Part shown: positions 30,552 to 41,357 of the stretch, one piece after another
How the letters are laid out: the number at the start of each line of letters is the position of its first letter
Numbering within the stretch: position 1 is the first letter of the stretch
Sequence record: OK148440
DNA: 64,000 nucleotides
From: Escherichia phage MLP3
Direction: 5' to 3' (one strand)
Program-made: the position numbers and the translations under genes
Notes under the pieces: generated by a model
Seen by the model: only the letters and a program-made list of their open reading frames with translations
Databases searched by the model: none
What the model was told of the DNA's origin: nothing

Positions 30552-30627
30552 TGTGGTGCACCCTACAGGACTCGAACCTGTAACCAACGACTTAGAAGGT
30601 CGCTGCTCTGTCCGTTGAGCTAAGGGT
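30552..30627 (-). tRNA. tRNA-Arg (anticodon UCU)
   Basis: 76-nt cloverleaf folded by hand: acceptor GCACCCT/AGGGTGC, D-stem GCTC/GAGC, anticodon stem GCGAC/GTCGT with loop CTTCTAA, T-arm ACAGG-TTCGAGT-CCTGT, encoded CCA. Confidence 0.9.
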
Positions 30628-30638
30628 GCTGAATTTGT

Positions 30639-35488: not shown

Positions 35489-35709
35489 TTGCGTAACCCC
35501 AGCTTACGAAGGAATCGGCCTAACTTAGTTTCTTGCGTGATAGTGTAAGTAACAGAGTTATCAATCAAGGCTTGTTCTTGAATCGGCGACGGATACCATT
35601 CACCGGTAAGAATGCATTTGCATTCGATTCCATATTTATCGGTTTTACGATAGGTCATGTTGTTGAGAATGTTACGATACATCTTAACTTCTGTTTTCAG
35701 TTTTGGCAT
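35485..35709 (-). CDS. hypothetical protein
   Basis: 74-aa ORF. Confidence 0.45.
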   Translation of the reverse strand: MPKLKTEVKMYRNILNNMTYRKTDKYGIECKCILTGEWYPSPIQEQALIDNSVTYTITQETKLGRFLRKLGLRK

Positions 35710-35764
35710 GGTGTTTATCTCTTTTTAGTTTCTTTGATTAGCACACTGAATCAATGCACTAGTA

Positions 35765-35797
35765 AAAGAAAAAGGCGCTACCCTTTCGAATAGCGCC
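35765..35797 (-). terminator. rho-independent terminator
   Basis: Minus strand GGCGCTA-loop-TAGCGCC followed by TTTTTCTTTT, downstream of 35817..36728. Confidence 0.55.
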
Positions 35798-35816
35798 TCA
35801 TGTGTTTTATTGTTGG

Positions 35817-36728
35817 TTATGCTGCCAGTTGACGCGCCGCCATAATCTCGGCAGCTTTGCGTAACACTTCCTCTTCTTCCTGCGCAGCTTTCTCATTAGC
35901 TTTGACAGTTGAAGCGTTTGAGATACGACCGCGAAGGTTAGACAATTTTTCAGTCATTTCATTGATCACCTTTTCCATTTCATCGGCGTACGAGTCCAGA
36001 GATTCAAGCTCTTTAGTTGAGGCATTAATCAGGTAGTCATCGCTGATAGAAACAGTTGAAGCGGTTACTTTCTTAAGGAGTGAATCGAAAGTTTTCTTAA
36101 CTTTGCCTACTTCTTCACTCAATGCGATAGTATTGTCAGAAGATGCGCCGTTGCGTTCATCTGCCAGTAGTGCCGCTTCAATACGGATTGCAGCCAGACG
36201 GTCAACCAGTGCATAAATATCCTGATTAAAGTTTTCGTTAACCTTCTGGTTGATCTGGTTTGCTACCGGAACATTGTCGTTGCAACCTTTGTAGAATGCT
36301 GGGTTATCAACCTGCACGTCTTCACCTTTAGCAAAGCGTTCAAAGGAATTAGACCAGCGGGCGCGGTTTTGTTCCATTTTGGCCTTAACTTGTTCCGGTT
36401 TAGCATCCTCTTTCGCTTTCGCTTCACCTTCCAGATTAATCCATTTCTTTTTACCGTTCGCCCCGTCGCTGTTGTACTTGATCGGGGTTAAGAAAGAGAT
36501 GGCAACCGCAATCACGTCTAAGTCACGATAACGCTCAGTTAACAAGAAATCAACCGCCGCCTGCAATACATCCAGTTTCTTACCGTTGGTGCGGAAGTGC
36601 TGCAAATGGCCTAACAGGAAGTTAGAAACATCTTGTTTGATTGCCGCGTTGTTGCTACGAATGTTGTTAGCCAGTGCATTAAAGCCGGATTCGTTAACCA
36701 GATTAAAAACTTTAGCCATGATATTCAC
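35817..36728 (-). CDS. hypothetical protein (303 aa)
   Basis: Long ORF; first gene after the 1.9-kb non-coding gap. Confidence 0.55.
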   Translation of the reverse strand: MNIMAKVFNLVNESGFNALANNIRSNNAAIKQDVSNFLLGHLQHFRTNGKKLDVLQAAVDFLLTERYRDLDVIAVAISFLTPIKYNSDGANGKKKWINLEGEAKAKEDAKPEQVKAKMEQNRARWSNSFERFAKGEDVQVDNPAFYKGCNDNVPVANQINQKVNENFNQDIYALVDRLAAIRIEAALLADERNGASSDNTIALSEEVGKVKKTFDSLLKKVTASTVSISDDYLINASTKELESLDSYADEMEKVINEMTEKLSNLRGRISNASTVKANEKAAQEEEEVLRKAAEIMAARQLAA

Positions 36729-37541
36729 CTTTCAATTGTAAGGGCACTATGCCCCGCTCTCTATGAGCTTTTTAAGTCACTATTGACTTATCAATAATCA
36801 CTCAATATCAAGTAATTATTGATAAGCGAGGCGGTCTTATCAGGAGTTAACCTTGCCGCCTCCTTATCCGTGATGTTTCATCTGGTATCTTTAATTAGTC
36901 GCTATAAATAAAGCCGACCTGATAGCGATGATCAATCATCACAATAAGGCAGTGCGTCCGACTCTATTTAATTACTTTATCGTAACCGTCGGCAATATCG
37001 TCTACTTTGCTTTCGCTCCCGCCTATCCTTTTGTACTAACTCTCAATCGCTAACCATCGCCCACTACGGGAGGTTATTGCGAAAGAGTCATTAGCCGTCT
37101 AATACATTGACGTTTTATATCTTTCAGCAGGTTTACTACATAAACTGATTATGTACGCCATCAATAGTGGCCTCAAATCATTCACATCGTAAACGTTCAC
37201 ACTAAACCTTATTGTTAAATAGCAATTTGCCACTTTTTAACCATTCACCGCCGCCCCCAATTGGGCGTTAATTCGTCGGATTTGCCTACCCTGATAAACT
37301 TCTTTCACTGTAGCACCTTGTTAGCGATGGCCGCCGCTACCCTTTAACCGTGGGCGATTAGTTTAGGCCGTTGCGTGTACTCAATGAATCCGTTTTATCA
37401 GTGGTGACGTTTCCAGTTAAGGGATTGTAAAAACTGTTTACCCTGATAATTTAGGGAGTCTTACGCCGTTTTATCTGGTATGTTTTCCGATGGTTATTAT
37501 CATCCAACATATTCAACCGATATAGGAGAATGTTTAAATTG

Positions 37542-37552
37542 TTAAAGAGCGG
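37542..37552 (+). promoter_or_regulatory. TTAAAGAGCGG motif copy 1
   Basis: Exact 11-mer repeated at 37772 and 37908, variant at 38311; followed by TATCAGTGTG. Confidence 0.3.
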
Positions 37553-37771
37553 TAAATCTATCAGTGTGCTTTCTCACACTATGCAACTGTTAGCCGTTGT
37601 TACGCTTTTCTTAAGCGGTGAATTGCTTAAGTGTGCTCATTATGAATCATGCTGTTTTAGCTGTCAACCGCTTTTTAATCTTTTTCGTCGTTCCCTTTAT
37701 TGGGAGGATATATCAATCAGCTATATTTGATTGAAGATTAAGCGGTAAGGCTTAACTCGCGATTCATATTT

Positions 37772-37782
37772 TTAAAGAGCGG
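37772..37782 (+). promoter_or_regulatory. TTAAAGAGCGG motif copy 2
   Basis: Exact 11-mer; followed by TATCAGAGTG. Confidence 0.3.
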
Positions 37783-37907
37783 TGTTTCTTACTGCTTGGT
37801 GAACATTCTATCAGAGTGTTTCACCTTGTCAACTCTTTTTATCATCTTCTTTTATTCTATTCCCTTATCTCGCTTGAATCTATGCGAAAGGGCAAGATGA
37901 TAAATTG

Positions 37908-37918
37908 TTAAAGAGCGG
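37908..37918 (+). promoter_or_regulatory. TTAAAGAGCGG motif copy 3
   Basis: Exact 11-mer preceded by AAATTG as in copy 1; followed by TATCATAGTG. Confidence 0.3.
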
Positions 37919-38052
37919 GGCACTAAGTGCCGGATGTTTCAAGTCATCGCTGACCGTGTGAACATCTTATCATAGTGATTCGATGTGTCAACAACTATTT
38001 TTCGATTAATGCATCTTGATAAACTAGCGACCATTAAGGCCGCTAACCTACC

Positions 38053-38253
38053 TCAGTTCATACGTTTAAAGGTTAAATCTTTATCCGTACTTACCAGCGA
38101 AAGCACCGCAATAGCTTTGCCTTTATCGGCATCGGCTACCATCTCTTTAGCTTGCTGTAGCGTACTACCGACTATTCTCATAATCATGTTAGTAACGTTA
38201 ATGCTAGTGCAAGTGATTTGCGTGTCTTTGCTTGAGAAGGTGTAAATATTCAT
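38053..38253 (-). CDS. small hypothetical protein (66 aa)
   Basis: ATG at 38253 with TGAGGA SD 8 nt upstream (ORF-track ORF 38053..38292 trimmed). Confidence 0.35.
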   Translation of the reverse strand: MNIYTFSSKDTQITCTSINVTNMIMRIVGSTLQQAKEMVADADKGKAIAVLSLVSTDKDLTFKRMN

Positions 38254-38310
38254 TGATAAATCCTCATTATGGCATGGTTGGGAGTTTATCAAGATACACT
38301 AATCAGATTC

Positions 38311-38320
38311 TTAAAGAGCA
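38311..38320 (+). promoter_or_regulatory. TTAAAGAGCA variant motif copy 4
   Basis: Variant of the 11-mer. Confidence 0.2.
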
Positions 38321-38568
38321 AGGCTAAACATCTAGCCTATCAGGAGGTAATTTACTGCGTCACGTCCTGACAAGATTCAATATACACTATCCTAAAACCG
38401 TTGCAAGCCTTTTTCTAAAATAATTTCACTTTCTTTTAGGCATAGAGGAACACGCGCACGAATAGCATCAAGGGAGGAAGAAAACAAGCCTTATAATCGA
38501 AAATAAGGCATACAGGAGGCGTTCTAACGAGCTAAACAGGGGCAAGATGTGCAATCACCTTAGAAATG

Positions 38569-38591
38569 AAAAAAGCGCCTCAAAAGGGCGC
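38569..38591 (-). terminator. rho-independent terminator
   Basis: Minus strand GCGCC-CTTTTGA-GGCGC followed by TTTTTT, immediately after stop of 38603..38974. Confidence 0.6.
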
Positions 38592-38602
38592 TTAGGGAAG
38601 TT

Positions 38603-38974
38603 TTACGGATTGGTGCAAGTGCCGTTACCGGATGATATTTCGTTCATCGACTCATCAAACAACGTCATGCTAGACCGCATCATGTGATCTATAGTGATTT
38701 GCTTTCCGGTAATTTCGTTAACAAGCATCGCATACTTGCCATCAACGACACGACGATCATAGTCATTCAGGTCAATCAATACTACCTTGCTAGACTTCTT
38801 TCCAGTGTCGTAGTTTTCCATAAGGTAGGTGCATTGCAGACCATCAAGGCTAGACTCATTGAATACGGCAGCATAGGACACGGAAGAAATAGCGAACAAA
38901 GCAGAACATACAGCTAATTTAATTTTCATGATCCAACCCTTAAGCGGAACGTGCAACAAAGAAAAACAAGTCAT
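38603..38974 (-). CDS. secreted protein
   Basis: Signal-peptide-like N-terminus MKIKLAVCSALFAISSVSYAA. Confidence 0.55.
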   Translation of the reverse strand: MTCFSLLHVPLKGWIMKIKLAVCSALFAISSVSYAAVFNESSLDGLQCTYLMENYDTGKKSSKVVLIDLNDYDRRVVDGKYAMLVNEITGKQITIDHMMRSSMTLFDESMNEISSGNGTCTNP

Positions 38975-39021
38975 AGATAAATGCTATGATACAGAGAACT
39001 AACAGACAATGCAAAAAATAC

Positions 39022-39294
39022 TTATGTAACATTACTCACCACTTTATCTAGATGATCATTGAACGTTTCACAAATGGATTGCACTTCGTCAATATCTAAT
39101 AGCAGACCGTGACGGGCAAAGAATTGAGCTAACTCAAGATAATCCGCACCAATAAGCATGACACCATTGAAAGGGGCGATCTTAACATCTTGAGATGTTA
39201 CCAATAATAAATTACCAATATCAGCAATAGCGTCATAATTCAGCGTAACGCCTACACCGTAATTGTGTGTTTCAATAATGGCAATAGTTTCCAT
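39022..39294 (-). CDS. hypothetical protein
   Basis: 90-aa ORF. Confidence 0.45.
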   Translation of the reverse strand: METIAIIETHNYGVGVTLNYDAIADIGNLLLVTSQDVKIAPFNGVMLIGADYLELAQFFARHGLLLDIDEVQSICETFNDHLDKVVSNVT

Positions 39295-39296
39295 CG

Positions 39297-39545
39297 TTAA
39301 TTATCCTCGACGGTTAGTAGTTCTTCCAGTGACAAACCGGATTTAACCAGCAAATCACGATATTCGTTAGCATCCATCGGATCGAGGCCGGATAATCGGG
39401 CAACGGTCATGCGTGCATGTGCTGAAGACAAGGAAGCTAAAGCACGGATAGGAATCAATACAAGCCCATACTTGCCACTAATAACTAAATCACCGTGCTG
39501 GATGCACATATGAGCATTTACTACGATTGCAAATGATTCGTTCAC
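39297..39545 (-). CDS. hypothetical protein
   Basis: 82-aa ORF. Confidence 0.45.
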   Translation of the reverse strand: MNESFAIVVNAHMCIQHGDLVISGKYGLVLIPIRALASLSSAHARMTVARLSGLDPMDANEYRDLLVKSGLSLEELLTVEDN

Positions 39546-40405
39546 TTGATAGCCTCACAATTAGCAAAGTTAATAAAAGTTGTATAGACTGCTATACCGT
39601 CATTGTAGGCAGTGGTAGCGAGTACAGTTTCGCTAACATCGCCATAACTAACGAGATTAGTTACAAACTGTAATTTCTCTTTCTCAATCTTCTGATATAG
39701 AGAATAAGTTACCATGTCATGATCACTATCAGCACGCTTTAAATTAATAACCGATTGAACGCCAGACTTATCACCTAAGGGGGTAAGAGTGACACGCACA
39801 CTACTAACACTGACGTCATTGAAACGAACACGCCAAAAGGCATCATTTCCATCACTTCCAACGTCACGGCAAGCCATATCAGGAGCGTTTTTAAACGTGC
39901 TAACAAAGGATTGCAGACCAGTAGAAAGAGAGTCTTTTGCCTGAACATTGGTAGAGATAGCACTAACACCGATAGCTGCAACCAGTGCATAAGAAGCCAG
40001 ATTAACAGACTTCATAATCTTACTTGCAATAGAAGGCTTGCTATCTTTCTTCTTCTTGTTCTGAATAGCTTCAACCATAGCAGACAAGCGGGATAATACT
40101 GCGTTAGCATCGCGGCAAGATTCAGGCCAATCCTTTTGAGTCCAACTATCTAAATTAGCCTGAATGTAACAGTTGATAGCATCTTGCATATCGGTAAAAC
40201 CATTCTCTTTCATCGACTCTTTATCTTCACACTGTAAGGCGTTCGCGGTGGAATCAATGATGAGGCAAGCCAGAATGACAGAGTTTTTGAAGCTGGTACG
40301 AGCTTGCTGGTTATCCATCCATTGAGAAGGCACACCAACGGAAAGACCTAACGAAGAAAGTACATCATTTGCTTGATTCAAGTATTTAATTGCTAACTTT
40401 GACAT
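39542..40405 (-). CDS. hypothetical protein (287 aa); first gene of the leftward block
   Basis: Long ORF adjacent to the divergent intergenic region. Confidence 0.55.
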   Translation of the reverse strand: MSKLAIKYLNQANDVLSSLGLSVGVPSQWMDNQQARTSFKNSVILACLIIDSTANALQCEDKESMKENGFTDMQDAINCYIQANLDSWTQKDWPESCRDANAVLSRLSAMVEAIQNKKKKDSKPSIASKIMKSVNLASYALVAAIGVSAISTNVQAKDSLSTGLQSFVSTFKNAPDMACRDVGSDGNDAFWRVRFNDVSVSSVRVTLTPLGDKSGVQSVINLKRADSDHDMVTYSLYQKIEKEKLQFVTNLVSYGDVSETVLATTAYNDGIAVYTTFINFANCEAIK

Positions 40406-40870: not shown

Positions 40871-41357
40871 CAACTACCAGTCTAAACATACATACATCAA
40901 TAATCCACTCATGAATAATCACATAAGTTATTACATTCAAACTATGGGGGATGGTCATCAATGGTATAGTTTACATAGGTTATCATTAATGTTCTTACTA
41001 TTAATACCGGTTAGTTATAGTCTTCTATTAGTATGCCTGTACAGTGCTAGCCTTTCATCCCTTCTCAACATGAGTAAGAGAAATACGGGTAGGAAATCAC
41101 TGGTTAGATATACATGGGTAAATAATCAATGTGTAATATCAATGGGTAGGTTATTTATGGGTAGGTATGCCACTGAACGCAGGTAGGGCAAGGCTTAGAG
41201 CTTAAAGGCTGATTGATTTCCTAAAGGCAATTGCATTGGTAATAACCCTTTTTTAAATGAGGACTCCCCCCTTTTAGGAAACGCGCTCGGAGCGGCTAGG
41301 TCCATCCGGTCAAATTGAAATTTTAAACTCTTATATATAAGAATAAGGAACTATTTT

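Follow-up and report, generated by a model that had tools for sequence, protein, structure and literature searches.

N-independent BoxA elements are known to protect untranslated RNAs such as ribosomal RNA (rRNA) and the arrays of clustered regularly interspaced short palindromic repeats (CRISPR) (PMC7665894, PMC5725501). So far, rRNA, CRISPR arrays and a small number of host genes are the settings from which the N-independent Nus system is known, and the N-dependent form is known from lambdoid phages. Here, we report on a 1.9-kb spacer in the DNA of Escherichia phage MLP3 (record OK148440), which we analysed as a stretch of 64,000 nucleotides (nt), hereafter the window. It is the counterpart of the unannotated spacer between phi32_124 and phi32_125 in phiEco32, the model for phage control of host RNA polymerase (through the sigma factor gp36 and through gp79), and it is blank in nearly all annotations. 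In the explanation that we favour, to which we give as a whole a probability of about 70%, the main early transcription unit of this phiEco32-like phage (Gordonclarkvirinae), read leftward, would have its control region and its untranslated leader in this gap. Promoters arranged as in an rrn operon, with boxB-like and BoxA elements behind them, would load the Nus complex for the synthesis of a long structured RNA and the expression of gene 124.

A search with the gap region found 97 phage records with 80-99% identity, Bas86 being the best match (98%), and all belong to phiEco32-like podophages that infect E. coli or Shigella (Gordonclarkvirinae: Kuravirus, Suseptimavirus and Nieuwekanaalvirus). 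The genes on both sides are all on the minus strand, and the features of the gap are therefore to be read on that strand. A previous interpretation of the letters alone (the sequence-only reading) had placed the gap at 36729-38600 and described it as free of genes. This agrees with phiEco32, which has no annotated gene between phi32_124 and phi32_125, but an open reading frame (ORF) of 66 amino acids (aa) lies inside at 38053-38253 (minus strand). The boundary also had to be moved: the downstream gene starts at the ATG at 36719 and not at the GTG at 36728, and the gap is therefore 36720-38602.

The sequence-only reading had drawn attention to an exact 11-mer, TTAAAGAGCGG, at 37542, 37772 and 37908 on the plus strand, with a variant, TTAAAGAGCAA, at 38311. 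These positions were confirmed, and the repeat exceeds chance: with one mismatch allowed, the window holds five matches where 0.97 are expected, and none of 100 shuffles reached five. TTAAAGAGCGG is the reverse complement of CCGCTCTTTAA, and the minus-strand form of the repeat is (C/U)GCUCUUUAA(C/A/G)AA. From its sequence, we propose that CCGCTCTTTAA is BoxA, the RNA site for host NusB/NusE. Using the published gamma-proteobacterial consensus GYTCTTTAANA (rrn: TGCTCTTTAACAA; Baniulyte 2017, PMC5725501), we found five perfect matches in the 64 kb against 0.61 expected. Four of these lie inside 780 nt (37540-38319), all on the minus strand (37540-37550, 37770-37780, 37906-37916 and 38309-38319). 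They correspond to the proximal BoxA-1 (CGCUCUUUAACAA, 37551-37539), BoxA-2 (CGCUCUUUAAAAA, 37769..37781), BoxA-3 (CGCUCUUUAACAA again, 37917-37905) and BoxA-4 (UGCUCUUUAAGAA, 38320-38308). The leader of rrnB in MG1655 contains TGCTCTTTAACAATTTATCAG, the rrn BoxA, and the stretch GCTCTTTAACAATTTATCA at 37916-37898 is identical to the E. coli rrnB leader over 19 consecutive nt; 14-mers common to the whole window and this leader occur only at two BoxA copies.

The bias in strand extends to the relatives. Counted over the window and 14 relatives (15 Gordonclarkvirinae sequences in all), the consensus is matched 64 times on the early strand versus 4 times on the other. Each of the 14 relatives, as well as each of nine distant metagenomic phages, carries two to five copies on the gene strand, set in unrelated flanks. 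Indeed, the BoxA core GCTCTTTAA-AA is invariant, and the flanks fall into many unrelated classes (for instance in phiEco32, TH34, Bas88 and NJ01): from 2 bits in the core, the information content sinks to background within a few bases on either side, and to less than 0.5 bit in the distal flanks. The copies thus have the consensus sequence, stand on the transcribed strand past a predicted promoter, and precede a long untranslated RNA, about 830 nt of non-coding sequence (870-936 nt in distant relatives) separating the proximal BoxA from the start codon that follows. No BoxA is found in the neighbouring early operon, whose transcript is translated over its whole length and whose promoter (40477-40450) fits the consensus; this agrees with BoxA being present on account of untranslated RNA.

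A second motif, TATCA(G/T)(T/A)GTG, was said to follow each copy of the 11-mer. This is the case for three copies, but the fourth is trailed by TATCAGGAGG, which does not fit. The window contains three TATCAKWGTG, all of them within the gap (37559, 37809 and 37968), against 0.77 expected, and they are not the same element. Next to two of the BoxA copies, the motif is part of a predicted promoter: TATCATAGTG is the reverse complement of the TG/-10 region of promoter P3, and TATCAGAGTG is the TG/-10 region of promoter P2 read on the opposite strand. At the first copy (37559), it corresponds to the 3′ arm of a boxB-like hairpin. Either motif can be understood only when read in the direction of the flanking genes, on the minus strand.

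A scan with the sigma-70 consensus predicted three near-consensus early promoters, of the TTGACA-16/17-TAnnnT type, on the minus strand: P3 (37964..37991; TTGACA-16-TAAGAT, extended -10 TG), P2 (37805..37832; TTGACA-16-TAGAAT, extended -10 TG, 11/12) and the proximal P1 (37639..37667; TTGACA-17-CATAAT, 11/12). P2 is a 77% copy of the P3 region (repeat D3). The presence of sigma-70 promoters in this spacer is already known, as phiEco32 and SU10 were described as having three of them in the corresponding spacer (SU10 paper, PMC4281155). The associated BoxA copies lie about 41 nt (P3), 18 nt (P2, BoxA-2) and 82 nt (P1) from the predicted starts. The suggestion of phage-specific promoters or operators was thus right in that promoters are nearby, but these look like ordinary host sigma-70 promoters, and the 11-mer itself would be BoxA, 18-82 nt past their predicted starts. 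P1 is kept in 9 of the 10 Gordonclarkvirinae scanned, as TTGACA-17-CATAAT or TTGACA-18-GATAAT, 66-89 nt upstream of the proximal BoxA; the exception is O18-011, with TTGACG. A P1-type promoter also stands ahead of the proximal BoxA in five of nine metagenomic relatives. Across all lineages the order is promoter then BoxA, most copies being preceded by a near-consensus promoter and located at +18 to about +190.

Between promoter and BoxA, a small hairpin is usually found. Ahead of BoxA-1, the boxB-like hairpin AGUGUG-AGAAAG-CACACU (37580-37563, minus strand) is separated from it by an 11-nt linker, the whole module covering 37539..37580. Its six base pairs (bp) are paired in 100% of cases, with compensatory changes at five of the six, and its purine loop is nearly invariant (AGAAAG; AGAAAA in EK010). 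A hairpin is predicted at the equivalent place in most distant relatives. The P3 leader (37905..37954, minus strand) carries a GNRA hairpin, GUCA-GCGA-UGAC (37954-37943), then a hairpin GGCAC-UUA-GUGCC (37931-37919), then BoxA-3; the stem of the GCGA hairpin covaries (AUUCA/UGAAU in phiEco32 versus AGUCA/UGACU in EK010). In the distal module (38308..38338), the hairpin AGGCUAGAUGUUUAGCCU (38338-38321, minus strand) lies directly 5′ of BoxA-4, and relatives keep its stem with a variable loop. Hairpins thus stand directly 5′ of BoxA-3, BoxA-4 and most copies in relatives, with sequences that differ between modules, and the order is therefore boxB-like hairpin then BoxA, as in rrn operons. An extended -10 promoter considered at 37561-37553 (TGATAGATT) was rejected: its TG is lost in NC-B, PAS59 and L029, while the hairpin that it overlaps covaries.

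The idea of non-coding RNA genes in the gap proved to be strongly supported, although the RNA does not lie at the motifs but in the motif-free left half (36741-37538). There, covariation and conservation reveal a large structured non-coding RNA of about 800 nt (36741..37538, minus strand) that belongs to no Rfam family. All 97 relatives have, at full length and with 76-100% identity, the 812 nt that separate gene 124 from the proximal BoxA. This region is conserved as strongly as the adjacent coding sequence, yet with scattered indels of 1-3 nt. Indeed, a protein-coding test of 36741-37538 found no conserved ORF (the longest has 44 aa), many single-nt indels and compensatory substitutions in helices.

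RNAalifold applied to the 15 sequences gave 225 pairs, and an independent count found 99.3% of cells paired. In this fold, 70 pairs are changed on both sides, whereas slid controls, in which the partner column is moved by 1-3 positions, have 4-9 such pairs. The corresponding covariation scores are 0.29 and 0.04-0.07, and none of 500 shuffles reaches the observed value. With 356 G-U cells, 99.3% of cells pair on the minus strand versus 89.1% on the opposite strand. Likewise, the z-score of the minimum free energy against shuffles is -7.2 for the minus strand, against -3.2. Pairing that is specific to the minus strand, together with better folding of that strand, therefore indicates selection on the minus-strand RNA. 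Adding distant relatives (alignment A2, mean column identity 55%) left 189 pairs, of which 128 show compensatory changes versus 48-65 in the slid controls, with a covariation score of 0.46 versus about 0.09.

The fold has three domains. Long-range helices close Domain I (37538-37525/37249-37236) and Domain II (37215-37206/36950-36941). The 3′ domain consists of a 19-bp helix (36942-36921/36889-36870), for which the distant relatives corrected the fold in a way that the close relatives agree with, followed by a hairpin with an invariant loop (36862-36828), a 17-bp hairpin (36827-36786) and a last hairpin (36755-36741), all on the minus strand. An inverted copy of the motif at 36750-36763 on the plus strand (repeat I11) turned out to be merely part of the 3′ hairpins of the RNA. 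In hairpin 36828-36862, the 20-nt internal loop AAGGUUAACUCCUGAUAAGA is nearly invariant in the 15 sequences (two single-base variants) and the stem covaries, which suggests a specific protein- or RNA-binding site; a scan of IMG/VR for exact matches to part of this loop returned only three contigs, one of them metagenomic.

Another hairpin (37235-37217, minus strand) carries a degenerate BoxA-like sequence, GCUAUUUAACAA (37213-37224). Nearly all Gordonclarkvirinae sequences have it unchanged (AAC becomes AAU in TH34), and it can still be recognised in distant relatives. One part of it lies in this hairpin and the other in the closing helix of Domain II. We did not retain this copy (37213-37223) as a Nus site: at the critical C4 of the BoxA consensus it has an A, it is base-paired, and it is conserved as a piece of the RNA structure. 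It could be left over from a former BoxA, or be a BoxA that is regulated.

With Rfam 15, the stretches 35500-40000 (E up to 1) and 36700-37600 (E up to 10) gave chance matches only: no family, including GOLLD, ROOL, OLE, HEARO, group I/II introns, 6S and RNase P, reached its gathering score, and the hits were at most 20 bits and eukaryotic or unrelated. No sequence similar to the RNA was found in E. coli genomes either.

Directly downstream of the RNA lies the homologue of gene 124 (35817..36719, minus strand; 300 aa, phrog_13018), with a ribosome-binding site, AAAGGUGA, at 36733-36726. It is followed immediately by a strong intrinsic terminator (35772..35799, minus strand), with a 12-bp stem and a T-run, which is annotated in SU7, where a new promoter is annotated beyond it. 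This terminator is likely the end of the promoter-BoxA-RNA-gene 124 unit, and RNA and gene 124 may therefore form a self-contained operon. In the phage collection, the gp124 homologue and the RNA occur in the same 97 phages. The protein has no Pfam match, as is also the case for nine neighbouring ORFs, and its PHROG family has no assigned function. Its confident AlphaFold2 model (predicted local distance difference test 84.7) shows an N-terminal alpha/beta part and a C-terminal helix of about 65 residues, and gave no informative fold match, coiled-coil matches only.

In a set of 5.8 billion proteins, relatives of gp124 with 45-70% identity were found on metagenomic phage contigs of up to 100 kb, of which nine formed our distant set. 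Each of the nine has a stretch of 1.4-3.4 kb upstream of the gene that is gene-free or nearly so (a few small ORFs called). Perfect BoxA matches number two or three per contig, always on the strand of the gene (26:0), and near-consensus promoters precede most of these copies. The proximal BoxA lies 870-936 nt from the ATG of gene 124 (831 nt in the window), and with an nhmmer profile the RNA sequence was recovered from each of the nine (E 1e-11 to 1e-103). As the same layout is found in these distant contigs, promoter, hairpin, BoxA, RNA and gene 124 form an old, conserved module.

Altogether, these data are consistent with the following scheme. Host sigma-70 RNA polymerase would start at the tandem promoters P3, P2 and P1, and perhaps also at weaker promoters upstream. 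Each transcript would carry (C/U)GCUCUUUAA(N)AA within about 20-80 nt of its start, usually after a small hairpin, and this RNA would be bound by host NusB-NusE(S10). Together with NusA, NusG and SuhB, NusB-NusE would turn the polymerase into an rrn-type complex that resists termination, is fast and chaperones RNA. The modified polymerase could then cross about 0.8 kb of untranslated RNA (up to about 1.6 kb from the distal modules) without Rho-dependent termination, run on into gene 124 and stop at the terminator at 35799-35772. Nus-dependent resistance to Rho at the phage BoxA is proposed here by analogy with rrn operons, suhB and CRISPR arrays, and the speed and the folding/chaperone functions of the complex may count as much as, or more than, the block of Rho. 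The untranslated stretch, a heavily paired RNA of three domains, would itself be a functional product: in our view, it most probably works as an RNA at the very start of infection, perhaps jointly with gp124.

Several points weigh against this scheme. BoxA-4 has no promoter of at least 10/12 just upstream, only a weaker one (38406-38379) and an extended -10 TGaTAGGCT. P1-P3 are sigma-70 promoters according to prediction and to one literature statement (PMC4281155). No conserved GU-rich boxC was seen 3′ of the BoxA copies, where information content is down to background about 6 nt past the core. In phage 7-11, which is more distantly related and has a similar early region, no BoxA lies near the early promoters. 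Finally, the transcript is G-rich and highly structured, with no clear rut-like tract (C-rich and G-poor); it is thus not obviously a good Rho substrate, and the need for antitermination is one that we infer.

The main alternative, possible but in our opinion unlikely, is that the structured region is a purely cis-acting 5′ untranslated region, a sensor or processing platform controlling the translation, stability or timing of gene 124. The RNA invariably stands immediately before the gp124 homologue, and the distance from the proximal BoxA to the ATG is constant (830-936 nt); RNA and gene are not separated by a terminator, and the unit stops right after the gene. These points favour a leader. 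However, with about 800-900 nt and three covarying domains, the region is far above the size of known bacterial cis-regulators, and its last hairpin (36755-36741) leaves the ribosome-binding site (36733-36726) uncovered. Moreover, between the window and phiEco32 the RNA is better conserved (about 90% nucleotide identity) than gp124 (about 80% protein identity).

The BoxA copies could also be put to another use: on very abundant early transcripts, they might act as a decoy that titrates NusB/NusE/SuhB away from host rrn operons and so helps to stop ribosome synthesis. Each genome has four to five copies of consensus strength behind near-consensus promoters. The copies match the rrn form of BoxA, which, in work by Nodwell and Greenblatt in 1993, reportedly binds NusB-S10 more tightly than the lambda form. 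Still, one BoxA per promoter and an exclusive link to a unit with a long untranslated RNA are more simply explained by antitermination in cis, and the distant relatives have two to three copies only, which makes a decoy improbable.

A replication origin, which the sequence-only reading had listed, would use the structured transcript as a primer or R-loop former (as ColE1 RNA II or the T4 origins do) and the promoters as activators. Strong promoters, a structured transcript and the large size of the non-coding region would suit it, such RNAs covary too, and the literature consulted maps no origin for these phages. On the other hand, no iterons, DnaA boxes or AT-rich unwinding element were found in the region, and the switch in GC skew lies elsewhere, at about 40.4-41 kb. 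The tight linkage to gene 124 and the BoxA elements would be unexpected, and the covariation is strand-specific, at the level of RNA; an origin found no support and appears improbable. Lastly, CCGCTCTTTAA as a DNA operator, through which a phage or host DNA-binding protein would regulate the early promoters, would account for a motif repeated near promoters in a phage known to shut off early transcription, but is very unlikely given its orientation bias (64:4 and 26:0), its lack of a palindrome, a variable distance from the -10 (about 2-50 nt in the window, over a wider range in relatives), its exact match to the host RNA-level BoxA with flanking rrn leader bases too, and the fact that the known shut-off factor gp79 targets RNA polymerase and not DNA (gp79 literature).

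The remaining features of the gap and its surroundings can be described briefly. Upstream, an intrinsic terminator (38573..38593, minus strand; a 7-bp G+C stem, then a T-run), annotated as such in SU7, closes the operon of genes 38603-40405. A second terminator-like hairpin (38488-38509, minus strand; GCCUUAUUUUCGAUUAUAAGGC then UUGUUUUCUU) lies 60 nt past it and ahead of the first BoxA module. The accessory 66-aa ORF, a homologue of SU7_114, is preceded by an AGGA ribosome-binding site, and the annotations of SU7 and PAS59 include it; six relatives share it at 95-100% aa identity, whereas phiEco32, NJ01 and others lack it. It is enclosed by a 31-nt inverted repeat (38274-38304/38004-38034), unchanged in seven phages, which as RNA is predicted to form a duplex with 22 continuous bp and could be an RNase III-type processing stem or the edge of an inserted cassette. 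In many lineages (L021, L024, L028, L029 and L031), the distal BoxA is trailed by a conserved CUGAYUAGUG...CUGAUAAG stretch, which in the window (38290-38307, minus strand) is the 5′ arm of this inverted repeat and could be a boxC-like element or a processing site.

Further away, the sole tRNA found is a tRNA-Arg (anticodon TCT; 30554-30629, minus strand), reported for other phages of the group, and the segment 40350-41300 is AT-rich (GC 0.30-0.37), with a switch in GC skew at about 40.4-41 kb. The right terminus of phiEco32 maps near 41297 of the window, about 2.7 kb to the right of the gap. The gap is thus not the junction of genome termini that had been suggested, and the window is therefore a permuted assembly across the physical genome ends.

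Concerning novelty, we found no paper linking BoxA or a structured RNA to phiEco32-like phages, an earlier mention in the primary phiEco32 papers being possible; the papers on Kuravirus, SU7, SU10 and gp79 mention neither, and a literature search on boxA with lytic-phage early promoters and antitermination returned nothing relevant. As part of the explanation that we favour, the module appears to be an rrn/CRISPR-type N-independent BoxA that a virulent phage adopted and multiplied, and that drives a large RNA outside Rfam. If so, a virulent phage exploits the N-independent, rRNA-type Nus antitermination of its host, which suggests the Nus factors as host dependency factors for a family of therapeutic coliphages. 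This family would also possess a large RNA with very strong covariation and no known relatives, expressed at once on infection and tied to an orphan protein. The RNA, either by itself or in a particle with gp124, stands a substantial chance of being something new. More tentatively, and with less than even odds, the RNA of about 800-900 nt may represent a class of large ornate phage RNAs that is new. The phage would have copied the design of rRNA operons (tandem strong promoters plus boxB/BoxA, the Nus complex doubling as folding chaperone) and would therefore make this RNA at rates like those of rRNA during the first minutes of infection; the RNA would serve as an RNA machine or scaffold, probably a ribonucleoprotein with the fold-orphan gp124, for host takeover or counter-defence. 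As large structured RNAs without an assigned function are rare and E. coli phages easily manipulated, this locus offers a tractable entry to function, structure and the chaperone role of the Nus complex.

How does this locus compare with described systems? The early region of T7 (A1/A2/A3, with an RNase III site before gene 0.3) also has three strong host-type promoters near one genome end, followed by an untranslated leader, and the possible long duplex around the small ORF (38004-38304) would be a further RNase III-type resemblance. To our knowledge, T7 has no BoxA elements and no covarying RNA of 0.8 kb. The RNA itself resembles GOLLD, ROOL, OLE and HEARO in its size of about 800-900 nt, its dense, covariation-supported fold of several domains, its presence in phages and its lack of an assigned function. 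It differs from them in showing no sequence or structure match (Rfam 15) and in being found in coliphages, upstream of a specific protein gene and behind BoxA-equipped promoters.

The nut sites of lambdoid phages share with our locus a phage BoxA RNA that works with host Nus factors for continued early transcription (a role that we infer here), as well as a purine-rich hairpin loop beside BoxA. Unlike in lambda, where boxA precedes boxB, the hairpin stands upstream of BoxA, and the copies have the full rrn consensus and not the weaker lambda CGCUCUUA. No N-like protein was identified, in a search that was not exhaustive. Moreover, the present phage has a virulent life cycle, in which a sigma factor of its own takes over later (gp36/gp79). 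Closer are the BoxA of CRISPR arrays and of the suhB 5′ untranslated region (Stringer 2020, PMC7665894; Baniulyte 2017, PMC5725501): these are stand-alone GYTCTTTAANA elements shortly past a promoter and before untranslated RNA, and the known ones need host Nus factors only. They are, however, host chromosomal loci with a single BoxA, whereas here the copies are multiplied in a lytic phage.

The comparison extends to the leader of E. coli rrn operons (boxB-boxA-boxC; NusB/NusE/NusA/NusG/SuhB/S4, rrnTAC). The phage locus differs from it in belonging to a virulent phage, in having one BoxA per promoter (four to five copies) whereas rrn has a leader and a spacer copy, in showing no boxC-like element, and in yielding an RNA of about 0.8 kb and a protein gene rather than rRNA. 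Both share tandem, very strong sigma-70 promoters (predicted in the phage), a hairpin followed by an identical BoxA, (U/C)GCUCUUUAACAA, with up to 19 nt in common, and, downstream, a long untranslated structured RNA held together by long-range helices.

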